Assembly (NCBI GenBank): GCA_021801565.1
Contig: JAJYXV010000003.1
Coordinates: 132,894-196,893 of the forward strand
From: a bacterium
GTDB lineage: Bacteria; Patescibacteriota; Minisyncoccia; UBA6257; GWB1-50-10
Reading direction: 5' to 3'
Length of the DNA stretch: 64,000 nt
In this document: positions 11,053 to 46,178 of the stretch, in pieces
Layout: the number at the start of each line of letters is the position of its first letter
Position numbering within the stretch: the stretch's first letter is position 1
The notes under the pieces: generated by a model
The model's database searches: none
The model's input: the letters and a program-made list of their open reading frames with translations, nothing else
What the model was told of the DNA's origin: nothing
Translations under genes and position numbers: made by a program

Positions 11053-11145
11053 AATTTTATTCCCCGGCGATCTTTCGCTGGGGAAATTGGGGAGATGCCA
11101 ATGTAGCCCCGCCAGAGGCGGGCAAGTCAGTTGGTAGATTTACCC

Positions 11146-16949: not shown

Positions 16950-17140
16950 GTATATTTATCCCGTAGGAAGCGGAGCTTCCCTTCGGGGCTACAGCCCGAA
17001 AAGATCTATTTTATTATACTCAAAGATAGGTATATTAATAGTTAGGGATGAACCCGGTAGTGATCCACTAATTGGCTGACTCTAGGTAGACATTTTTATA
17101 TTTTTAGTTTAGAATATAAAACAGTTTTTAAACATATGAG

Positions 17141-19488: not shown

Positions 19489-19677
19489 TATACCTGCTGC
19501 GTTTGCAGTAGCGTTTTTATGCCCAGTGAGTGCCTGCCTGCGGTAGGCAGGAAAACTCGATTTGTCCGCTTTGATGCGAACGGGATGGATGGGTAATAAA
19601 AACAAAAAGTCTATTATATAATAAACACTTATAAAAAGGAAAAAAGATATAAAAATATCGAGTTTCTACTACTGGGT

Positions 19678-23278: not shown

Positions 23279-23503
23279 GAGAAATTCTAAATCCTAATTA
23301 CTAATTTCTAAATAATATTAAAATTCAAAAATACAAATTTAAAAAATAAACAAAGAGACTTTGCGGGCTTGCCCGCCGAAGTTTTCTGAAACGAAGGCGG
23401 GATTGGTTCGGTGCCCGCCCAAAACTTTGTGTTAAGGCGGGTCCGCAAAAATGTCGACATTGTCGCTTTTGGCGGAGTAGAATTTGCGTGATACAATACA
23501 AAA

Positions 23504-23764
23504 ATGTATTACACATATGTTCTTTTGTGTAAAGGTAAGGATAGAGAAAAGATGTATTTTGGATTTACAGGGGATTTAAAGTTAAGAATAGGACAATATC
23601 GAAAAAAAATGGTAAAAACTACAAGGAGTTTTAATGAGATTGAACTTATCTATTACGAATCGTGTAGAAATAAAACGGACGCAAGAAAGAGAGAAATTCA
23701 ACTAAAAACGGGATTTGGACGGGGTTATTTAAAAAGAAGGTTAGAAAATGATATTAAAAATTAA
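23504..23764 (+). CDS. small GIY-YIG nuclease family protein (COG2827/YhbQ-like), copy 1
   Basis: MYYTYVLL..KMYFGFTGDLKLRIGQYRKK carries the GIY-YIG motifs. It ends 4 nt before tRNA-Gly. Confidence 0.75.
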   Translation: MYYTYVLLCKGKDREKMYFGFTGDLKLRIGQYRKKMVKTTRSFNEIELIYYESCRNKTDARKREIQLKTGFGRGYLKRRLENDIKN

Positions 23765-23768
23765 TTTT

Positions 23769-23839
23769 GCGGGTATGGTTTAGTGGTAGAATGCGACCTT
23801 CCCAAGGTTGAGACAGGAGTTCGATTCTCCTTACCCGCA
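23769..23839 (+). tRNA. tRNA-Gly (anticodon CCC)
   Basis: The acceptor stem is gcgggta/tacccgc and the T-arm aggag-ttcgatt-ctcct. The anticodon loop ttCCCaa has stem cgacc/ggttg. Confidence 0.8.
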
Positions 23840-37136: not shown

Positions 37137-37176
37137 ATTATAAACCCCTTTTCACAAGGGGTTTTTATCTGACCTT

Positions 37177-37218
37177 ATATCCTCACTTCATCCACATATG
37201 TGGATGAAGTGAGGATAT
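37177..37218. repeat. 42-bp perfect palindrome ATATCCTCACTTCATCCACAT|ATGTGGATGAAGTGAGGATAT
   Basis: Reverse complement checked by hand. The two 21-nt arms match exactly with no spacer. Confidence 0.9.
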
Positions 37219-37289
37219 GGTGATTTTGTTATAAAATATATCTTTTTATTGAAAAATATTGAATTTGTTGGTACGATATTTTTGCCATT

Positions 37290-37331
37290 GCCGGATCGCC
37301 TGCTTGCGCAGGCAGGTCTAATGGTAGGACA
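37290..37331 (+). other. tRNA-Gln 5' segment duplicate (nt 1-9 and 10-25 of the downstream tRNA, split by a 17-nt GC palindrome)
   Basis: gccggatcg matches tgcgggatcg with 1 mismatch. gtctaatggtaggaca (37316-37331) is identical to tRNA nt 10-25 (37603-37618). The insert cctgcttgcgcaggcag is palindromic. Confidence 0.6.
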
Positions 37332-37336
37332 TAAGT

Positions 37337-37585
37337 ATGTGGAATGTGTACATTTTGAAAAGTGAGGGTCGTAATTGGTTTTATGTTGGGAGCACCAATG
37401 ATCTAACGCGTTGCATCAAAGAACACGAAAACGGAAAGGTACAATCGACAAAAAGTTATCGTCCACTCACCTTAGTTTTTACCAAAGAATTTGACGAGGA
37501 ACGAGATGCAGGGGCATATGAGCGTAAATTAAAAAAATGTAGAATTGAGAAAGAGAGCATAATTAAGAAATTTAATTTATGCTAA
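37337..37585 (+). CDS. small GIY-YIG nuclease family protein (COG2827-like), copy 2
   Basis: WNVYILKSEGRNWFYVGSTNDLTRCIKEHENG carries the GIY-YIG motifs. It ends 7 nt before tRNA-Gln. Confidence 0.72.
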   Translation: MWNVYILKSEGRNWFYVGSTNDLTRCIKEHENGKVQSTKSYRPLTLVFTKEFDEERDAGAYERKLKKCRIEKESIIKKFNLC

Positions 37586-37592
37586 ATGATAT

Positions 37593-37663
37593 TGCGGGAT
37601 CGTCTAATGGTAGGACAGCGGACTCTGAATCCGTCAATCTTGGTTCGAATCCAGGTCCCGCAG
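37593..37663 (+). tRNA. tRNA-Gln (anticodon CTG)
   Basis: The acceptor stem is tgcggga/tcccgca, the D-arm gtct-aatggta-ggac, and the T-arm cttgg-ttcgaat-ccagg. The anticodon loop ctCTGaa has stem gcgga/tccgt. Confidence 0.8.
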
Positions 37664-37765
37664 CACGAGTCAGCACGGTATCGAGGCAAGACCACCTTGC
37701 CTCAGCAACGACCGACTTTCTCCGTCCTTGAAAATGTCATACCGGCTGAGTGCCGTATTCAAGAC

Positions 37766-37798
37766 AAAAGGCCGCCGATACATCGGCGGCCTTTTGTC
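37766..37798 (+). terminator. strong rho-independent terminator aaaggccgccgat-a-catcggcggccttt followed by a T-run
   Basis: A 13-bp GC-rich stem followed by TTTTGTCTG. Confidence 0.7.
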
Positions 37799-37864
37799 TG
37801 TGCAGCTTAGGCTTGACTCCAAAACCATATTCATATATTCTTTTAATGCAGAAGATTTGAATAC

Positions 37865-38230
37865 TTGAATATGGCAAAGGCACACATTATAACAAAAGAT
37901 GGCACGAAAGTAACAATCGAAGGTACCCCTCAGGAGGTGGCTTCTTTAGTCACGCAATTAAAGGGAGGGATACCGCAGACTTCTGTCATATCAAAAACAA
38001 CTAAAAAACACAAAGGACAGGCAAAAGCTACCCCAGTAAACCTAATATCCGAATTTATTGATGGAGGTTTTTTTAAGAAACCTAAAGAGCTTGGCGCTAT
38101 AAAAATTGCGCTCGAGGAGCAGGGACACTACTATCCAGTTACCTCGCTATCCCCGGCGTTGTTGCGACTCGTTCGTAAACGACAACTACGACGAATCAAA
38201 GATAAGAAACGTTGGTTATATGTTAATTAA
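37865..38230 (+). CDS. island paralogous-family protein 1 (shared ~60-aa GFF...GY..S.L..AL.R module)
   Basis: LISEFIDGGFFKKPKELGAIKIALEEQGHYYPVTSLSPALLRLVRKRQLRR aligns with the corresponding segment in the next three genes. Confidence 0.45.
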   Translation: MNMAKAHIITKDGTKVTIEGTPQEVASLVTQLKGGIPQTSVISKTTKKHKGQAKATPVNLISEFIDGGFFKKPKELGAIKIALEEQGHYYPVTSLSPALLRLVRKRQLRRIKDKKRWLYVN

Positions 38231-38235
38231 AATAT

Positions 38236-38562
38236 ATGTCTAAAGAAGAAAAAACAATTAAGGATTTACTAACTCGAGTTAAGAAACTCGAAAAGACTGT
38301 TTTTGCCGAGAATAAGGCAAAACCAAAGCTTGATAATAAGCAAATCTTTGTAGGAGCAACAGGTGGATTAAGGCTTTTAATATCTAAAGGATTTTTTGAT
38401 AAAAAAAGAAGTTTCGGGGAAATAAAAAAAGCACTCGCAGACCGGGATTATCACTATAGTAATCAGGCGATACAAACACCCCTTAATAAACTCTCAAGGA
38501 TTGGAGGGCTATTAGTGGGCTTAAAAGAGAGTGGTAAGAAAGCTTATGCAAAAAGAAAATAA
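38236..38562 (+). CDS. island paralogous-family protein 2
   Basis: LLISKGFFDKKRSFGEIKKALADRDYHYSNQAIQTPLNKLSRIG is present. Confidence 0.45.
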   Translation: MSKEEKTIKDLLTRVKKLEKTVFAENKAKPKLDNKQIFVGATGGLRLLISKGFFDKKRSFGEIKKALADRDYHYSNQAIQTPLNKLSRIGGLLVGLKESGKKAYAKRK

Positions 38563-38794
38563 TAAAATTGCAAAGAGTGCCCCGGATAGTCTAAAACTTC
38601 TTTGGTTAAAAGGTTTTTTTAAGTCGTGGAAAAATTATGGCCAAATTGTCAAAAATTTATCCGGTCAAGGATATAACTTTTCAATGCCAGAATTAGGCAT
38701 GGCGTTAAAACGTGCAAAGCATCTTACTAGGAGAGGTAAAAGAACCGGCTATGAGTATATTCAAAAGTATCCCTTTACCTCAGATGAAAAATAA
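38546..38794 (+). CDS. island paralogous-family protein 3
   Basis: LLWLKGFFKSWKNYGQIVKNLSGQGYNFSMPELGMALKRAKHLTRRG is present. The start is chosen at the ATG overlapping the upstream stop. Confidence 0.45.
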   Translation: MQKENNKIAKSAPDSLKLLWLKGFFKSWKNYGQIVKNLSGQGYNFSMPELGMALKRAKHLTRRGKRTGYEYIQKYPFTSDEK

Positions 38795-39473
38795 GAACTC
38801 AATTTCACTACCAGAATTATTGAAAGTCCTTTGGCAGGAAGGATTCTTTTCAGATGAAAAAGAGCTTTCAGAGATATCTGGAGGTTTTGCTGCAAAAGGT
38901 TATCATTTTAAATCTTCAAGTCTCAGTGTGGCCCTTATACGCGCAGTCAAATCAAGTGGGTTTTTGAATAGGATAAAAGAGTCTGGTAAATGGAAATATA
39001 TTCAGAAACATCCAATAACATCGCCATCTGGGCAACGCATTGCTTTGTTCGAAAGATACGACTTGCATCCCAAAGTAAAAGAGGTTGCCTTCAAACAGTT
39101 TGAAGATGGGTATTTTAAAGAAGCAATTCAGAATGCGCTTGTCGAAGTTATTGAGCAAGTAAAAATCAAAGCAAAAAGACCTAAAAATGCAAATGGACAT
39201 GATCTCGATGGAGATGACCTAATGAACCAGGTTTTTGGTTGCGATAATCAACATCCTAAAATTAAATTTAATAATTTAAAAACAAGTCTTGATAAAGCAG
39301 AACAAAGAGGGCTAATGAATTTATTCAAGGGAATCGTCGGAATTAGAGACAAAAAAGCCCATCTTAATTTTATACAAAAAGATCATCTTAAAACTATTGA
39401 ATATTTATCTCTCGCTAGTTTATTAATGCGGCTTTTAGATGAATTTGCCTTAACTCGCAGGAAAGATAAATAA
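38784..39473 (+). CDS. island paralogous-family protein 4 with a C-terminal TIGR02391/Hypoth_Ymh (Abi_C-like) domain
   Basis: The N-terminus carries LLKVLWQEGFFSDEKELSEISGGFAAKGYHFKSSSLSVALIRAV. The C-terminus carries FEDGYFKEAIQNALVEVIE...GHDLDGDDLMNQVFG...IKFNNLKTSLDKAEQRGLMNLFKGIVGIRDKKAHL...YLSLASLLMRLLDE. I recognise this from memory as the TIGR02391/Abi_C pattern. It has not been verified. Confidence 0.5.
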   Translation: MKNKNSISLPELLKVLWQEGFFSDEKELSEISGGFAAKGYHFKSSSLSVALIRAVKSSGFLNRIKESGKWKYIQKHPITSPSGQRIALFERYDLHPKVKEVAFKQFEDGYFKEAIQNALVEVIEQVKIKAKRPKNANGHDLDGDDLMNQVFGCDNQHPKIKFNNLKTSLDKAEQRGLMNLFKGIVGIRDKKAHLNFIQKDHLKTIEYLSLASLLMRLLDEFALTRRKDK

Positions 39474-39474
39474 T

Positions 39475-40215
39475 ATGGATTTTTCGAAAAATATAAGAGC
39501 ATTTTTAAGCAGTTTGCCGATAAAAGATTTGAGTGGCCACCAAATTTTTTTGGCAATAGCGACTTATTGTGCGAGCGGTGACACTTCTGATCAAGTTAAC
39601 ATTGCTGATGTACGCGATAGATGGCCAATGTCCTTATTAAGGAAAAAATATAATACAAATTTTTATACCCGAGCCCAAACGGAAGGATGGGTTGATCCAG
39701 TTGGGCAAGGGATTTTTATTATAAAAGATGAAGGATTACAACATCTCGAAGATTTAGTTGGATCTATCAATAAGAACATTGCTTCTTTAAACAATACTGG
39801 CCTTTTTATTTTTGATAAAAAAGATACCCACTCTTTTGATAAATTTTTGCGCACTATTTTTGCAAATGCCAAATCCAGAGTGCTTATAGCAGATTCTTGG
39901 GTTGATGAAACAATTTTTGACAATGTACTTGATAGTATTCCTAAAACACTTGATATCAACTTAATTTATGGCCAAAAGAAAGGAATATTTGATAGTCGTA
40001 TAGTCCGCTTTAAAAAACAATATTCAAAGTTTGTTGTTAAAAGATATAAAGATCTTCATGATAGATTTTTAATCGTTGATAATATGGGTTGCGTCATAGG
40101 CCCATCTTTAAAAAATGCTGCCGAGAAAAGTCCCGCCTTGATAGTTGTTCTGGACAAAAAGGATTCTTTGCTATTAATTAAATTTTTCCAAGTGTTATGG
40201 AAAAAGGCAAAGTAG
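39475..40215 (+). CDS. hypothetical protein with a degenerate PLD/HKD-like motif (HDRFLIVDNMGCVIGPSLKN)
   Basis: 246 aa, translationally coupled to the previous gene (TAATATG). A single HxR-x4-D-x6-G-x-S-x2-N motif lies near the C-terminus. The assignment is weak. Confidence 0.35.
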   Translation: MDFSKNIRAFLSSLPIKDLSGHQIFLAIATYCASGDTSDQVNIADVRDRWPMSLLRKKYNTNFYTRAQTEGWVDPVGQGIFIIKDEGLQHLEDLVGSINKNIASLNNTGLFIFDKKDTHSFDKFLRTIFANAKSRVLIADSWVDETIFDNVLDSIPKTLDINLIYGQKKGIFDSRIVRFKKQYSKFVVKRYKDLHDRFLIVDNMGCVIGPSLKNAAEKSPALIVVLDKKDSLLLIKFFQVLWKKAK

Positions 40216-40243
40216 ATTTTATTAAATAATTTTATTCACATCT

Positions 40244-41605
40244 TTAGCTGACCAATAATATCTCTTTCTCTTTTAGTAGAATTTTGTTTTTTATACAGTT
40301 CAGTAATTCACGCTTTTCTTCAATAGTTCCATGGCTTAAGACGTGATTTGAATACCGCTTTGCATCAAAGTCTTTTTCTAGTGATCCATCATTGTGGATA
40401 TTTAGAAATGATTTTTGGAATTTTGTCATTCGCTTATACTCTTCATCAAATTTCTTTTTGATGACGCCCTCATTCATCTCCAGCTCCCCAATAACTGCGA
40501 CCAATTGCTTGATTACTTCCTCTTCTCGGATATACCCTTCCTTACATTGAAGGTTTCGTGATCGATTGCAACCATAGTAGACATAGTGAGCCACATCGCC
40601 GTTGGCGAGTTTTTTATATTTATCTTCAGCGGTTACGCCTGATCCGCATCGCCCACAAGTCATTATTCGTGAAAATACGAATTGTTTATCTGTGTATTTA
40701 ATTTCCGATCGCTTTAATTTTTCTCGCGCTTTCTCAAACACTTCTCTTGTGATAAGAGGTGTATGTTGTCCCTTATACCAATTTCCACTACCCATCGGAT
40801 ATTCAAACGTTCCATAGAAAAAGGGTGTTTGCAGTAAGCGATAGATGTTACTCAGCGTGAGTGGTTTATTACTCGTTGCACTCCGAAAATTCATATCAAA
40901 TTTCAGCCAGTGATATATTTTTCTTCCGCTCCATCCTTCAAATGCAACTTTCTCAAACATCTGTTTTATAACTGGCGCTCGTTCGGGATCAACCATCACA
41001 TATCCTTTCCGATCAATTCGTTTTTCATTTAAATATCCTGTTGGAGCGGGTGCGGGCCATAATCCCATTTCACAGCGCATTCGCAATCCTCGTTTTACAT
41101 TTACGCTCTTGTTATCATTTTCCAGTTTTGCCTGTGAGCACAAAATCATTAGAAGAAACTTCTCATTCGGAGAATTTGTGAAATGCTGGCCGTATGTTTT
41201 TATCTCGAGCAGCAACTTCTGATCCATAAGATCAACAAGTGATCCCAAATCTCCAGCGTTTCTTGATAATCTATCCGGCGCCCATGTGAGTATCCCTGTA
41301 TATCGTCCGCTTCGAATATCTTTAACGATTTCGTTAAAAACTGGACGCTCGCCAGAATCTTTCGCCGAATGTGATTCTCTCCGAATATCCACAATCTCCA
41401 GTCCATCACGTTCGGCAAGCTGAAGCATCTCTTTAATCTGTGAATCAATAGAGAGAACTTGCCGCTCTTCACTCTCTGTCGATTTCCGAGCATAGAGACA
41501 GTATCTAACCTTTACTGGAAGCTCTGTGGATCTTTGAGCCTGAGCTCCTACCGACCCCACTGATTGTTGTGATGTATTCATACAACACAAGGGAGCCGGA
41601 ACCAT
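40244..41605 (-). CDS. large serine recombinase (phiC31-type integrase family)
   Basis: The N-terminal resolvase catalytic domain (YCLYARKSTESEERQVLSIDSQ ... RLSRNAGD) is followed by a recombinase domain and a zinc ribbon (CGRCGS...YYGCN). 453 aa. Confidence 0.85.
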   Translation of the reverse strand: MVPAPLCCMNTSQQSVGSVGAQAQRSTELPVKVRYCLYARKSTESEERQVLSIDSQIKEMLQLAERDGLEIVDIRRESHSAKDSGERPVFNEIVKDIRSGRYTGILTWAPDRLSRNAGDLGSLVDLMDQKLLLEIKTYGQHFTNSPNEKFLLMILCSQAKLENDNKSVNVKRGLRMRCEMGLWPAPAPTGYLNEKRIDRKGYVMVDPERAPVIKQMFEKVAFEGWSGRKIYHWLKFDMNFRSATSNKPLTLSNIYRLLQTPFFYGTFEYPMGSGNWYKGQHTPLITREVFEKAREKLKRSEIKYTDKQFVFSRIMTCGRCGSGVTAEDKYKKLANGDVAHYVYYGCNRSRNLQCKEGYIREEEVIKQLVAVIGELEMNEGVIKKKFDEEYKRMTKFQKSFLNIHNDGSLEKDFDAKRYSNHVLSHGTIEEKRELLNCIKNKILLKEKEILLVS

Positions 41606-41786
41606 TCAAACAAGTCCAGATGTATGAAGTGGATAACTTACTTTACTTCTTTCCTGAAATACGCGAGGAATACAAAATATGGAAATAAAGGTCGAAATGC
41701 GCTAAAATTTATTAACAATTGAATAGCCTTAATATACATAAGGCAGGATCTAAACCATCGGAGTAATTCGGTAGCATGATCTAAAA

Positions 41787-41830
41787 ACGTTTCACAGTAT
41801 TAAGCTCCTCGTCAGAGCACTGTGAAACGT
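41787..41830. promoter_or_regulatory. 12-bp perfect inverted repeat ACGTTTCACAGT-N20-ACTGTGAAACGT in the divergent promoter region between the recombinase and protease genes
   Basis: Arms at 41787-41798 and 41819-41830, reverse complement checked. Confidence 0.5.
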
Positions 41831-41847
41831 CATACAGGGAAACTTGT

Positions 41848-42915
41848 ATGGGTGGAGAAATCCATCGCTGGCGGGGAGCTTTATGTTTTCCGCCAGAACA
41901 GAATCACGATGCGAATATGAATTTAAAGAGTATAAAGATAAACTCAAAAATTTTTATAGCAGGTGGAATAATTGTTCTTATATTACTTGGCATATTGGGC
42001 ACATTTGTTGTGATTGATAAATTTAGAAGTTATCAAAGAGAACAATCAGAAAAAAATGCGCAAGCAACAGAAAATCTTGCTTTGCAACAAAAAACGCTTG
42101 ATGAAGCAAGACAGGAAATCGAGAAACTCAAATCAGAAAATAAAAATATTGACCAAAAAATAGAGCAGAAATCAAATGAATTAAGCCGAGTAGTTGCCAA
42201 AGCAGTGCAGAATAATTCACAGCAGGGATCAGTGGAATCTACGATCCAGGCAAGTGAGATAAATCAGTACCTATCTGGCGTTGGAGAAATTATATGTTAT
42301 GGCGATGTACAGAAAAGTGGGAGCGCTTCGCTTTGGAAGTTTGGTAATGATGGCTATGTTTTAACGAACTACCATGTAATATCAGGTCCAGGAAATTGCA
42401 ATCTAACTATTGATGGTAATGGCGTGTATAAACTTGATAAAACGAGTGTCCGATCATGGAATTCCGCGACCGATGTTGCGGTGGTGAAAATAGCTCCCTT
42501 TGGAGAAATGGCAGATATTTCATCTCCAATATCAGAGTTGAATTACAGCATTTCATATTTAAAGGAGTGTCCGGCAAAAATGCCACTTGGTTCTCCAGTT
42601 ATAGCTATAGGATTTCCGGCATATTCCAGAACCACAACCATGATTAATGGAGTGGCGAGCAGCCACTCTCAACGGACAATTACAAATGGCATTATCAGTG
42701 CGTACGATGATTCGGTTCAAATGCCAATAGGTAGTTTACCTAACGTAAATTATTTTGTTTCAGCAAAAATAGATAGTGGTAACTCCGGAGGTATTACTTT
42801 TTCTAAAAATGAAAACGGTCTTTGTCTTTTGGGCATCCCAACATGGTTATCACTTGGAAAATTTGAAGCAGGAGGTCTCATACAGAATATTTTTAATGTT
42901 TTATACGAGAAATGA
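41848..42915 (+). CDS. membrane-anchored trypsin-like (S1 family) serine protease with a coiled-coil linker
   Basis: A TM helix and a coiled coil are followed by the catalytic His (LTNYHVISG), Asp (DVAVVKIA) and Ser (GNSGGITF). The likely true start is MNLKSIK (41917). Confidence 0.6.
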   Translation: MGGEIHRWRGALCFPPEQNHDANMNLKSIKINSKIFIAGGIIVLILLGILGTFVVIDKFRSYQREQSEKNAQATENLALQQKTLDEARQEIEKLKSENKNIDQKIEQKSNELSRVVAKAVQNNSQQGSVESTIQASEINQYLSGVGEIICYGDVQKSGSASLWKFGNDGYVLTNYHVISGPGNCNLTIDGNGVYKLDKTSVRSWNSATDVAVVKIAPFGEMADISSPISELNYSISYLKECPAKMPLGSPVIAIGFPAYSRTTTMINGVASSHSQRTITNGIISAYDDSVQMPIGSLPNVNYFVSAKIDSGNSGGITFSKNENGLCLLGIPTWLSLGKFEAGGLIQNIFNVLYEK

Positions 42916-43229
42916 AAAATACTCAAGACTACAAAACTATAGCGGGCGCATGGAAGATTGCTCAAGAATTTGCCGATGCAGAAGCAAAAAATGCAGAATC
43001 TTTTTATTCACTCAATAATACCTTGCCATACAAAAAAGATATTATCGCGTTAGCACTATTAAATCTCCTCACCTCGAATGATTTTAGAAATGAGCTGTTG
43101 TGCAAAGGAGAAGGGGGCGAAAAAATTCTGCAAACAATATCAAGTCTTATGTTCAGCTTAGCTACTGCATATTTTCCAGACGAAACGGAGTATCGAGAAC
43201 TAATCGAGACAAAAAAATTAATGGACTAA
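42912..43229 (+). CDS. hypothetical protein
   Basis: 105-aa ORF. Confidence 0.3.
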   Translation: MKNTQDYKTIAGAWKIAQEFADAEAKNAESFYSLNNTLPYKKDIIALALLNLLTSNDFRNELLCKGEGGEKILQTISSLMFSLATAYFPDETEYRELIETKKLMD

Positions 43230-44308
43230 GATCTTTTCCTACTTGATGACTCAAGCATTTTTCTAACGGCGGCACCCAAAAGATCTTCGTTTACAATGGG
43301 AACATCAATACAATATCCAGCCATGAAGGGCGAAGTCGGTTCTAATCTTTTGCAGGGACATGGTATTTTTTCTTTTGCGGGAAATTGAGCTATCAATTCT
43401 TTATCACACTCCCTAAGATTGTATCGGAAGGTACCCATATGTAATAGATACTCTTGTCGCCAGACATAATCATCAAGTTTTTCCTGTAGAGTTTTAATAC
43501 TTTCCGGAGTTGAAAATTTTTCTGGCCATAAAATCTTTTCGTGTTTATCGAGCAGAGGGTATGCTCTGAAGGCTCCCTTTAATCTTCCTTTTTCTATATT
43601 TTCTTTTATGTTCATCATAAAAGAATTGGCATGAACAAGATTTCCAACGATCATAATTTTTGTGTTTTCATCGCCGATAGGTAAAATTTCAGATTGGAAC
43701 CATTGATATGTCTCATCTCTTTCGCGTAGGCTAATAGATTTCGCATCTTCAATATCATCAATGATAATTAAATCGGGGCGATGTTGGCCATGTTTAATCC
43801 CTCTAATGCTTTGTCCACTTGAAATAGCAATAATACGAGCTCCCACCAAAGGAAGTTCAATACTCAATGCTCCCCATTCACTTTTATTGTCGATCTTGAA
43901 AGGACCAAGGTCGCCTCGTAATAATTTATTATTTTCCAGTTCATGACATATGTGAGAAAGAAGCGTTTTCACCTGTTGTTGGCTTTTGCTTATCATTACC
44001 ACGCATTTCTTTTGCTGTATTCCTAAGATTGCCCATAACACATAAGAAAGGCTTATAATGGTTGATTTACCTCCGCCTCTGAAGGCCATAATCGCAATAA
44101 CGTTATAGACAGTATCTTCAGTCAATAAAAACATCTCCTTTTGGAATGGAGCAAACTTATAACCAAAATGGTGGTTCAAAAATATGAGAGAAAACCACAC
44201 ATGACTCCTAAAAACGAGATGCCGGCGAACCGCTTTGTCGGTAATGATCTTATCTCTCATTTTTTCAATTTCTGTTTGATTCGAGTTTTTTGAATAGGTT
44301 GAATTCAT
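43226..44308 (-). CDS. phage terminase large subunit-like protein (ATPase domain; short)
   Basis: Walker A (AFRGGGKST) and Walker B (PDLIIIDDIEDA) in terminase-like spacing. It is translationally coupled to the upstream small-subunit-like gene. Confidence 0.6.
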   Translation of the reverse strand: MNSTYSKNSNQTEIEKMRDKIITDKAVRRHLVFRSHVWFSLIFLNHHFGYKFAPFQKEMFLLTEDTVYNVIAIMAFRGGGKSTIISLSYVLWAILGIQQKKCVVMISKSQQQVKTLLSHICHELENNKLLRGDLGPFKIDNKSEWGALSIELPLVGARIIAISSGQSIRGIKHGQHRPDLIIIDDIEDAKSISLRERDETYQWFQSEILPIGDENTKIMIVGNLVHANSFMMNIKENIEKGRLKGAFRAYPLLDKHEKILWPEKFSTPESIKTLQEKLDDYVWRQEYLLHMGTFRYNLRECDKELIAQFPAKEKIPCPCKRLEPTSPFMAGYCIDVPIVNEDLLGAAVRKMLESSSRKRS

Positions 44309-44706
44309 TTTGGAGAAAATAATTGAATTGCCCTTTCCACAGTCTCCCTTTGCTCTTGGACAAGTTCTTCTTCGACGATGGGTTTTGTGGCAATCTCAAC
44401 TCGTAATGCATATTTCGGATGGTGATGGCGAAGCCATAAGTGGATCGCTGAAAAGTTTTTATCTTTAATCATTGAGATGAGTTGTGCTTCGCTTAGATCA
44501 TTTATCGATTCTTCACCCTCTTCGATCGCTTTATCTATGGCAGAAGCAAATTCTTTATCCTCGATTTTCCATCGATAAAAACTAGCCCTGCTTATTCCTG
44601 CCTTAAGGCATGCAACTTGAATAATCGGAAATTTCTTCAACTGTTCAAGCAAACTTTCTTTTTCTTTTTGTTGACGTTCTTTAATTGTATCGTTATCGTT
44701 TTCCAT
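44305..44706 (-). CDS. phage terminase small subunit-like protein (HTH)
   Basis: The HTH VACLKAGISRASFYRWKIEDKEF is present. The gene sits directly upstream of the TerL-like gene. Confidence 0.5.
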   Translation of the reverse strand: MENDNDTIKERQQKEKESLLEQLKKFPIIQVACLKAGISRASFYRWKIEDKEFASAIDKAIEEGEESINDLSEAQLISMIKDKNFSAIHLWLRHHHPKYALRVEIATKPIVEEELVQEQRETVERAIQLFSPK

Positions 44707-45006
44707 ACTATTTTTATTATTACTTTTTACTCTTCGCCTTGATTGTCACCTTTATAAAAATAAAAAAGGCGTGCCAAAAGAGCTCCGCCTTTTTCTATGA
44801 TTGAAATTGTAATGTTGTAGTCAAAAGACTACACTGCCATTCTACATCTTTTCATAAAAATTTAACATGGTAGAATTGTGAATAACTTTTATATTAATAT
44901 AAATAAGACATTATAGTGTCTCATTTGAATATGGCTTTTCTATGTCTCAATTGTCTCATTTACGAAAAAGCTCCGTCAGACCAGCGGAGCTTTTTATTGC
45001 TATATT

Positions 45007-45246
45007 CTAGCCCTTATATTTTTCTGGATCTTCGCCGTAAGTGTATTCTCTCTCGATTACATTTTTCTTATTATGGATCTTAATCTGACCAAGATTGCAA
45101 TTTTCAAGAATATCTCTTGCGGCCTGGATTGCGTCAAGTTTATTCTGCACTACGACGGCAGCGCGTTGCGTTCCCTCGCGCTTAGCTGCCCATTCAATTC
45201 CATTTTCGGTAAATCGGGGCGTAATGTGGTAAACTACTCTTTTCAT
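45007..45246 (-). CDS. hypothetical protein
   Basis: 79-aa ORF. Confidence 0.3.
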   Translation of the reverse strand: MKRVVYHITPRFTENGIEWAAKREGTQRAAVVVQNKLDAIQAARDILENCNLGQIKIHNKKNVIEREYTYGEDPEKYKG

Positions 45247-45812
45247 GTGCTATACTGTTATTGCATGTAACACGACCTTTGGTCGTAAACGAAAAACCGG
45301 AGCCGTTATCATCGGTTCCGGTTTTTCTAATATTAGTTGTGTATTTGAAGAATCGGAGGAAGGTTAGGTCTTGGTCGCAAAAATTGTGCTTTGAGGTAAC
45401 CTCCGATGATAGGGTCTGACTAGTTCTGACTTTTCAATTTACTCTTACATTATAGCGCATTTTTCGAAAATTTTCAATCTTTGATCCGACATAAGCCAAG
45501 ACCTAGAGGGGTCAGAAAAATGCTAGAACGCAACGCAAAAAAGCCTTATACTGATTGAAGAGTTGTGGCACTAGACCACACAACACAGCATATGCAAAGC
45601 CGCTTGCCTTTTTAGGTGAGCGGCTTTGCATTATATTGTTGGTCTGGATTCGAACGGGAAAAGGGTTGGGAAAACGGAAGTTTTCCTGTGGTGGAGGTAC
45701 TGGAACCGCAAGGTGTCAGAAAATTTTGAGAATACAAAATTTTGTTTGATTGCCAGGTCCCGCAGCACTTCGGCAAGCTCAGTGCAAGCACATCTGAGAG
45801 GTATAATAAAAA

Positions 45813-46102
45813 CATGTGGTATATATGCATGCTTTTTTGTGATCAGAAGACTTTTTACGTCGGGATAACTGATGATCCGAAAAAGAGATTAGTAGAACAT
45901 CGAAGGGGGTGCTCATTTTATACAAAAAAGTTTTCTGATCTAGAGTTCATATTATTGTGAACAATATTCGAGTAAGCATGAAGCTGCCTTGCGGGAAAGA
46001 CAAATCAAGGGATGGGCGAGAGCAAAGAAGCAGATGTTATTAGATGGTAAGCTTGGGTATAATATTTGTACTGAGATTGTCGAAGCTCTTCGGAATGGAT
46101 GA
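45813..46102 (+). pseudogene. GIY-YIG nuclease family gene (COG2827-like), copy 3, frameshifted
   Basis: The N-terminal part MWYICMLFCDQKTFYVGITDDPKKRLVEHRRG is in frame 0 and stops at 45960. The C-terminal part HEAALRERQIKGWARAKKQMLLDGKLGYN continues in frame 2 to the TGA at 46100. Confidence 0.55.
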
Positions 46103-46138
46103 CTTGCCCTGAGTATACCGAAGGGAATCCCTGTCCGG

Positions 46139-46178
46139 CAGCACGAGTCGGTGCAGTATCGAGTGAGAATGGAGAGCG
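46139..46178 (+). repeat. 40-bp direct repeat copy A (CAGCACGAGTCGGTGCAGTATCGAGTGAGAATGGAGAGCG)
   Basis: Identical to 47101-47140. It is related (21/26) to the sequence immediately 3' of tRNA-Gln (37661-37686). Confidence 0.85.

Follow-up and report, generated by a model that had tools for sequence, protein, structure and literature searches.

Why does a small nuclease gene lie between an incomplete and a complete copy of the same tRNA gene? The question is raised by a GIY-YIG gene immediately upstream of tRNA-Gln(CTG) in the stretch of Patescibacteria DNA analysed here (64,000 nucleotides (nt), hereafter the window). A first-pass annotation had described this locus as the footprint of a cassette, made up of a nuclease gene and its own tRNA 5′ segment, that had inserted into the tRNA gene and restored it. 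On balance we lean towards reading positions 37249–37663 as one transcription unit, which would run from the tRNA-Gln promoter through a dead tRNA stub and the GIY-YIG gene to the working tRNA, i.e. as a nuclease cassette nested in a duplicated tRNA gene. Its parts are as follows:

37249–37277, forward strand: sigma-70-like promoter TTGAAA-17 nt-TACGAT, from a consensus scan, with the predicted start a few nt before the stub.
37289–37298, forward strand: first part of the pseudo-tRNA-Gln stub, TGCCGGATCG, equal to tRNA nt 1–10 with one mismatch, from repeat comparison.
37299–37316, forward strand: palindromic insert, hereafter PAL, CCTGCTTGCGCAGGCAGG, exactly between tRNA nt 10 and 11.
37317–37331, forward strand: second part of the pseudo-tRNA-Gln stub, TCTAATGGTAGGACA, identical to tRNA nt 11–25, from repeat comparison.
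37326–37329, forward strand: candidate ribosome-binding site AGGA, 7 nt before the ATG, its role a proposed one.
37337–37585, forward strand: GIY-YIG nuclease gene (family 1) with a UPF0213/Slx1-like core (Pfam PF01541, 1.3e-12).
37593–37663, forward strand: intact tRNA-Gln(CTG), found by ARAGORN and Rfam.

The intact tRNA scores 61.8 bits with Rfam, which matched nothing else between 37100 and 37900 at gathering or E-value thresholds. Upstream, 37289–37331 is a second copy of tRNA-Gln nt 1–25 with one mismatch, split by the palindrome between nt 10 and 11. The copy is slightly longer than first described, in that T plus GCCGGATCG (37289–37298) covers nt 1–10 rather than nt 1–9, with C for G at nt 4 as the sole mismatch. 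The 16-nt identity to tRNA nt 10–25 proved exact on alignment: the 16-mer GTCTAATGGTAGGACA occurs at 37316–37331 and 37602–37617 and nowhere else in the window (0 expected, 100 shuffles). The insert is indeed palindromic, is better measured as 18 nt than as 17, and is one base off the perfect palindrome CCTGCCTGCGCAGGCAGG seen in relatives; a pattern search for it gave one match in the window, with 0 expected. The open reading frame (ORF) encodes 82 amino acids (aa), not 83, and the reported 7-nt gap to the tRNA start holds; an in-frame TAG at 37325–37327 blocks its upstream extension. Both promoter hexamers and their spacing are kept in a syntenic relative (L001), and this is probably the original tRNA-Gln promoter. 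The stub behind it is a displaced 5′ part of tRNA-Gln, with the nuclease gene between stub and complete tRNA, as had been proposed.

The same layout is present in more than 100 related uncultured bacteria. The family 1 protein of the window has 17 detectable relatives, and all eight homologues whose context was looked up have tRNA-Gln (CTG or TTG) within a few nt downstream (3–8 nt where read). These eight share a leader consisting of tRNA nt 1–10, the palindrome CCTGCCTGCGCAGGCAGG, TCTAAYGG and more tRNA sequence, followed by ATG, and the genes flanking the cassette vary between lineages. A scan of metagenome contigs with a degenerate pattern, in which any stem transition was allowed, returned 139 sites, 119 of them unique. 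A family 1 GIY-YIG ORF was present at 63 of the 119, and 15 consisted of stub, a spacer of 17–82 nt and intact tRNA without an ORF. Several sites carried decayed ORFs, at least 14 had PAL within an otherwise full-length tRNA-Gln, and three were tRNA-Glu stubs sharing the context TCG-TCTAACGG. At one locus added from a scan of genome contigs (L093), the slot holds an HNH endonuclease instead (PHROG 3e-28), and across loci its contents are GIY-YIG, HNH endonuclease, decayed ORFs or nothing. Stubs end as early as tRNA nt 15 and as late as nt 52 (mode 25), which looks like erosion. Of 77 loci, 52 have stub nt 1–10 that match the adjacent tRNA without a mismatch, where shuffling gave 7.4 on average and 16 at most; in the other 25, the stub acceptor sequence is unlike the adjacent tRNA.

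Loci with tRNA-Glu (L225 from 887 onward, L134 and L188) carry tandem partial tRNA-Glu copies split by PAL, in one case with a compensated double change, TCTGTCTGCGCAGACAGG, or by other long GC palindromes in the D loop. Public gene calls for several homologues (P0004, P0007, P0009 and P0011, e.g. L012 369–668) are 15–35 residues too long, as they begin at a TTG or GTG of the tRNA stub and read through the palindrome.

The annotation had envisaged a single insertion at the junction of D-arm and anticodon stem; other layouts instead show a gene between two tRNA copies, one of them disabled. In the reversed layout (L172, L189, L164 and L240), an intact tRNA-Gln is followed by the GIY-YIG gene and then by a tRNA-Gln of full length that contains PAL once or twice. 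The three-part layout (L154, L173, L202, L224 and L235) runs from stub with PAL through GIY-YIG and intact tRNA to a PAL-disrupted tRNA. The anticodon loop can hold additional PALs (35/36, 36/37 and 37/38), and a related palindrome is found in the T loop. With PAL removed in silico, all 21 stem pairs are kept in four of 17 PAL-bearing copies, compared with 77 of 79 intact neighbours, and 20 of the 27 broken pairs fall in the acceptor stem. The 10 nt upstream of PAL are decayed or of other origin in the disrupted copies, and the remainder is tRNA-like. As their stems are broken while nearly all the neighbours are perfect, the PAL-disrupted copies are probably pseudogenes. ARAGORN missed every palindrome-bearing copy or gave it wrong boundaries. 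The tRNA-Gln(CTG) copies on either side of the L189 nuclease gene have diverged at many positions, compensatory changes included.

Nor is the palindrome a cassette junction. The stub contains it as an insertion in its own right, 18 bp long, and it also occurs elsewhere in genomes, placed exactly and without target duplication at tRNA-Gln 10/11, 35/36, 36/37 and 37/38. The perfect form was found at 106 of the 119 unique metagenome sites. The genome-contig scan, with one genome per species, gave at least 119 loci with the palindrome pattern; about half of those listed carry the perfect 18-mer, far above the degenerate-pattern expectation, and the listed hosts are mostly Patescibacteria, with some Bacteroidota and Proteobacteria. 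Where PAL lies in long ORFs among the listed loci, it reads LPAQAG (n = 29), PACAGR (n = 8) or CLRRQ (n = 4), and host genes include UvrD, PolA, TopA, RecJ, CysRS, ArgRS and GatB (in-frame examples among L013–L131: L075 4497, L101 2175, L074 927, L031 7032). Relative to solved GatB structures, one Saccharibacteria GatB has an insertion of 6–7 residues that is exactly DLPAQAG. PAL was present in 25 viral contigs, whereas neither of two control palindromes of matched composition occurred in any, and contigs with a family 1 nuclease hold about one non-tRNA copy per 145 kb. An assembly or adapter artefact is ruled out by homologous positions in many data sources, the reading-frame bias and natural variants. 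Among PAL variants, the strand-bias test for an RNA hairpin counted 11 C-to-T changes (all but one G.U-compatible) and six G-to-A (one compensatory); as this difference is not significant, we make no claim of an RNA over a DNA role. In a Sphingobacteriales metagenome-assembled genome (L088), PAL is the terminal part of a longer repeat, about 50 nt in length.

How could such a unit arise and work? A selfish insertion or duplication event may have placed the gene between two tRNA copies, with the tRNA restored; one copy would be kept intact and the other disabled by the GC-rich palindrome, then erode. The nuclease gene would borrow the strong tRNA promoter, giving a single transcript over stub, PAL, ORF and tRNA on which the leftover D-arm AGGA would serve as ribosome-binding site, and RNase P, cutting where the tRNA begins, would part mRNA from tRNA. 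The GC hairpin may cap the exposed mRNA end, i.e. the 5′ end in the layout of the window and the 3′ end in the reversed layout. In the predicted leader fold (−22.8 kcal/mol), the palindrome forms a hairpin. The architecture, its recurrence and conservation, the intact catalytic residues and the promoter consensus are observed directly; the stabilising role of this hairpin, the selfish origin and the target of the nuclease are inferred.

Several points weigh against this account. Co-transcription, the ribosome-binding site and RNase P processing are themselves inferred, and the predicted leader fold barely beats shuffled sequence (z = −1.9). A role purely as mRNA cap leaves unexplained both why the palindrome is near-invariant (106 of 119) while ORFs diverge below 60% identity and why the same 18-mer lies inside housekeeping genes. 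The layout proportions given above are biased, since the metagenome pattern required palindrome plus TCTAAYGG, and only the protein-first sample (eight proteins) is unbiased. Furthermore, a cassette-free orthologous tRNA-Gln site was not found among the loci examined, hence the insertion event itself was never observed.

The encoded protein belongs by sequence and predicted structure to the GIY-YIG superfamily and within it to the UPF0213/Slx1 branch, as a minimal core of structure-specific type. It scores 48.3 bits against Pfam PF01541 (cut-off 22.6, E = 1.3e-12), with the domain covering residues 1–67. Across 18 sequences from this family and the second one described below, there is no variation at Y5, Y16, G18 or E62, and conservation is at least 90% at R26 and H30. 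A family profile searched against the PDB matched the UPF0213 proteins BH0048 (3.3e-10) and EF2693 (8e-8) and then SLX1 (2e-4), with marginal scores only for I-TevI and UvrC. An AlphaFold model (predicted local distance difference test score 87) has strands at 2–9, 15–20 and 44–52 plus helices, and Foldseek placed BH0048 first, then Slx1, with I-TevI tenth. The NCBIfam group I intron endonuclease model gave 16 bits against a cut-off of 56, and the separate DNA-binding domain that defines the I-TevI and Seg homing endonucleases, and with which they recognise a long asymmetric target, is absent from the 82-aa protein. UPF0213, YhbQ and Slx1 nucleases have the same minimal catalytic core and are the best sequence and fold matches; this subfamily is marked by a stand-alone core of about 80–100 aa. 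Slx1 acts with a partner protein, Slx4; unlike Slx1, the nuclease here has no evident partner. Literature searches for the palindrome sequence, the peptide LPAQAG and UPF0213/YhbQ/COG2827 returned nothing relevant. In the literature searched we found no description of the arrangement or the palindrome, and no described function, tRNA-gene link or palindrome link for the UPF0213/Slx1-like family.

The annotation had held that an ancestral, non-mobile arrangement in relatives would count against a mobile cassette, and this is in part what was found, as the arrangement is common to relatives across Patescibacteria. The L001 locus runs from Obg through a methyltransferase gene, a hypothetical gene, the leader and GIY-YIG to tRNA-Gln. 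The nucleases of the window and L001 share 74% of their amino acids, compared with 64% and 27% for neighbouring genes, and promoter plus leader are 86.5% identical in nucleotides, compared with 75% for the ORF. The protein is under purifying selection in this lineage. Near-identical nucleases beside different tRNA backgrounds were not seen among 55 loci; a co-divergence test for horizontal transfer had no informative pairs (correlation of nuclease and tRNA identity 0.06), and the leader pattern, searched as a sign of phage carriage, was absent from 2.9 million viral contigs. Synteny and conservation in L001, together with the lack of near-identical nucleases on different tRNA backgrounds, indicate that in this lineage the module acts as an old vertical unit rather than a recent invader; no sign of recent transfer turned up. 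There are also signs of turnover: ORF loss, HNH in the slot, mismatched stub acceptors (25 of 77) and the two unlike tRNA-Gln(CTG) copies of L189. In a 99.5% identical strain, three of four differences over 844 nt fall in stub and PAL. Our reading is that the module may be an old element of selfish origin, now mostly vertically inherited.

A second GIY-YIG family occupies a comparable position in the window, and the label of second copy given to the family 1 gene is consistent with this gene and with a further, frameshifted one:

23437–23483, forward strand: pseudo-tRNA-Gly stub made up of GCGGGT (nt 1–6), a hairpin TCCGC...GCGGA (23442–23476) and GTAGAAT (nt 18–24).
23504–23764, forward strand: GIY-YIG gene of 86 aa (family 2; Pfam 4.1e-11), its stop codon 4 nt before tRNA-Gly(CCC).
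23769–23839, forward strand: tRNA-Gly(CCC), downstream of the family 2 gene.
45814–46112, forward strand: frameshifted GIY-YIG pseudogene (joined translation against Pfam GIY-YIG, 9e-13).
19533–19551, forward strand: PAL-like hairpin CCTGCCTGCGGTAGGCAGG, intergenic, with one match in the window and 0 expected.

The family 2 cassette spans 23437–23839. This family has more than 555 homologues, and the four independent contexts fetched (L277, L279, L280 and L281) all adjoin tRNA-Gly(CCC). Their tRNA-Gly stubs are split by TCCGCC..GGCGGA and CCCGCC..GGCGGG hairpins (CCAGCC..GGCTGG in L277), at a position that varies by lineage (after nt 12, 13, 17 or about 35). In other contexts, family 2 members lie upstream of tRNA-Ser (L020 and L029) or within a tRNA-Gln stub (L138/L246), and here too TCCGCC..GGCGGA directly precedes the ORF. 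As the family 2 hairpin stays even in a tRNA-Gln context, hairpin type tracks the nuclease family and not the tRNA. The suggestion that small GIY-YIG genes lie directly upstream of tRNA genes thus holds for Gln, Gly and Ser; some GIY-YIG genes among the loci examined have no tRNA link. A hairpin resembling PAL had also been reported in the rpsL leader at 19544–19562; it exists, at 19533–19551.

Upstream of the frameshifted pseudogene lie 16 nt repeated from the tRNA-Gln 3′ end (45753–45768); downstream lies a 3′ remnant resembling tRNA-Gln (about 46126–46149), whose acceptor strand TCCGGCA is complementary to TGCCGGA of the stub. On the minus strand at 45641–45668 lies a tRNA T-arm plus 3′ acceptor-like fragment, GTTCGAATCCAGACCAAC, between the right end of the island described below and the pseudogene. 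With tRNA pieces at 45641, 45753 and 46133, the region is a graveyard of tRNA fragments. At 11088–11145 and 16950–17010 on the minus strand, tRNA-Thr and tRNA-Pro each have an imperfect upstream copy of their own first 10–11 nt, followed by a GC-rich hairpin (CCCGCCAGAGGCGGG for Thr) and no ORF. The matches are individually weak (p = 0.5 and 0.03, respectively), and these copies may be decayed cassettes.

Against our preferred reading, the locus could be explained by active homing, in which the GIY-YIG enzyme cuts a cassette-free tRNA-Gln and repair copies the nuclease gene plus tRNA 5′ part, with stub and intact tRNA as the only homology arms, spreading between unlike flanks. This would account for two unrelated nuclease families (GIY-YIG and HNH) in the same slot, for flanking genes that vary between lineages, and for ORF decay and loss, which match the life cycle of a homing endonuclease gene. 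Mismatched stub acceptors are expected if the copies differ in origin, and the diverged pair of L189 fits too. There is also a precedent in phage T4 SegB, a free-standing GIY-YIG homing endonuclease gene in a tRNA gene cluster (PMC2330249). Like SegB, the gene here lies beside tRNA genes, is co-inherited with them and is outside any intron, but SegB is full-length with a DNA-binding region and sits between intact tRNA genes with no duplicated tRNA fragment. The slot with interchangeable contents fits the earlier suggestion of homing-style targeting, but the enzyme, an 82-aa core without DNA-binding domain, nearest to UPF0213/Slx1 and not to I-TevI or Seg, does not look like a classical homing endonuclease. 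Moreover, the intact tRNA shares the D-arm sequence of the stub, leaving self-immunity unexplained. The 55 loci without near-identical nucleases on different tRNA backgrounds, synteny and purifying selection in L001, the absence of the leader from viral contigs and the lack of an empty orthologous site among the loci examined count against homing as well. We regard it as tenable but unlikely.

More doubtful is a partnership of nuclease and palindrome by analogy with REP/RAYT systems, where an Slx1-like enzyme would act on the extruded palindrome or hairpin beside its gene, and the palindrome would be a non-autonomous partner that spreads and knocks out the rival tRNA. The association of hairpin type with nuclease family fits this, with CCTGCC..GGCAGG in family 1 and, in family 2, TCCGC(C)..GCGGA upstream of the ORF in eight of eight independent loci, usually beside a second GC-rich hairpin. 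So do the precise 18-bp insertion without target duplication at several tRNA-Gln positions and in housekeeping genes, the over-representation in viral contigs (25 compared with 0 and 0), a nuclease fold of structure-specific type, and the clustering of palindrome-disrupted tRNA copies around the nuclease gene. However, the one palindrome locus inspected outside the Candidate Phyla Radiation (L088) has no nuclease gene, and among the at least 119 listed genome-scan loci, four ORFs match the GIY-YIG model, one of them in a tRNA-Gln cassette. The HNH-containing locus carries the palindrome too, and copies are few, with about one outside tRNA genes per 145 kb. To our knowledge, no GIY-YIG enzyme has been shown biochemically to move a palindrome. 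Like PAL, REP/RAYT sequences, Rickettsia palindromic elements and yeast mitochondrial GC clusters are short, GC-rich palindromes scattered through an AT-rich genome, some of them lying in frame in protein genes or in RNA genes. PAL differs from REP-type repeats in being 18 bp, perfect, near-invariant across phyla and devoid of a GTAG/CGTC tag; no HUH Y1 transposase gene was found near the locus, and the likeness is one of logic only. A bolder formulation, to which we likewise give little credence, is that Slx1-like mini GIY-YIG proteins and short GC-rich palindromes are an unrecognised mobile pair in Patescibacteria, comprising a tRNA-nested, promoter-sharing nuclease gene and a cognate palindrome (CCTGCCTGCGCAGGCAGG for family 1) that would insert without target duplication into rival tRNAs and housekeeping genes, making the cassette tRNA indispensable.

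A host-beneficial leader appears improbable. Here, stub and hairpin would serve the tRNA operon as a functional 5′ leader, e.g. competing for the 3′ acceptor strand in processing or folding, and the GIY-YIG protein would be an ordinary housekeeping nuclease sharing the operon. Changes in the tRNA acceptor stem are matched in the stub in at least 12 acceptor types, promoter and leader are more conserved than the ORF between the window and L001 (86.5% and 75%), ORF-less versions retain stub, hairpin and tRNA, and tRNA-Pro and, weakly, tRNA-Thr of the window have an upstream copy of their first 10–11 nt followed by a GC hairpin. Yet the Thr and Pro matches are weak, none of 25 Arg, Cys, Ile, Leu, Lys, Met and Thr tRNA genes in the examined loci has such a leader, and reversed layouts put the palindrome-bearing copy downstream of the ORF. 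The concentration of strain differences in stub and palindrome (three of four over 844 nt) is also unlike a constrained regulatory element.

It is hardly credible that the palindrome-bearing tRNA-Gln copies are functional and contain a new bacterial tRNA intron removed from RNA: although at least 14 are full-length, some with the insert at 37/38 (the classical tRNA intron position), anticodon and T stems are perfect, and the only tRNA after the nuclease gene of L171 carries the palindrome (the related L206 has none), just four of 17 keep all 21 stem pairs, most broken pairs (20 of 27) lie in the acceptor stem, the hairpin has neither a bulge-helix-bulge motif nor a ribozyme match, an intact tRNA-Gln is nearby in most palindrome-bearing loci, and the strong reading-frame bias in protein genes among listed loci (29:8:4) indicates that the palindrome is translated, not spliced out. 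A group I or other known tRNA intron was rejected, as no model matched and the insert is a plain hairpin. A recent paper on Patescibacteria tRNA introns does not extend to tRNA-Gln, D-arm inserts or GIY-YIG.

Downstream, the tRNA-Gln gene borders a separate element:

37666–45590: island of 7.9 kb at the tRNA-Gln 3′ end, with AGCA repeated at both junctions, absent from L272.

In L272 (98.9% identical), the tRNA 3′ end is joined directly to window position 45591 onward. The island encodes a large serine recombinase (40244–41605, minus strand), a Hypoth_Ymh protein, a trypsin-like peptidase and a helix-turn-helix protein. A LOOT RNA (Rfam RF03000, 88 bits) at 41747–41866 overlaps the start of the peptidase gene (41848–42915). 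In L001, this tRNA is occupied by another serine-recombinase island. The motif CACGAGTC.G...GTATCGAG occurs at 37665–37690, after the tRNA-Gln 3′ end at the left junction, again at 46143–46165 after the pseudo GIY-YIG/tRNA remnant, and in L218 and L093; the serine recombinase may use it as its attachment sequence on the island side. The 16-nt tRNA 3′-end repeat at 45753 was ruled out as the far attachment site, the L272 junction being at 45587–45590. On the other side of the cassette, a perfect hairpin with a 20-bp stem (37176–37219) separates the upstream gene's terminator from the cassette promoter; in strain L276, about 400 nt encoding a 77-aa cysteine-rich hydrophobic ORF replace this segment.

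Integrase islands resemble the nuclease cassette in using tRNA genes for integration and restoring the gene from element-borne sequence, but they duplicate the tRNA 3′ part and encode a recombinase, whereas the cassette duplicates the 5′ part, spans about 300 bp and encodes only the nuclease. It has no integrase or recombinase and no direct repeat of the tRNA 3′ part, the features by which tRNA-targeting elements are recognised. The 7.9-kb island beside it does fit that class. Mobile endonuclease ORFs that bring a replacement piece of the host gene are another parallel, e.g. the GIY-YIG element in Allomyces mitochondrial atp6. There too, part of an essential gene is displaced, a duplicate is supplied and a pseudo-fragment lies beside the restored gene. 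Those elements replace the 3′ end of a protein gene; here, the 5′ end of a tRNA is duplicated, and the displaced piece retains the promoter and is split by a palindrome. The cassette is set apart from these known systems by the 5′ duplication, the UPF0213/Slx1-type mini-nuclease, the palindrome-disabled second tRNA and its occurrence with several tRNA species.

If the reading we favour is true, small nucleases in reduced genomes would have a standard niche in essential tRNA genes: duplicate the gene, keep one copy and take the promoter. For genome annotation, stubs and palindrome-split tRNAs mislead tRNA finders, and gene callers extend the ORF through the leader. PAL offers a concrete, testable substrate for the UPF0213/Slx1-like family, and its presence in frame in GatB, UvrD and PolA bears on how very short sequences spread across genomes and phyla. 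The arrangement is apparently a widespread and undescribed way for a nuclease gene to live in a tRNA gene.

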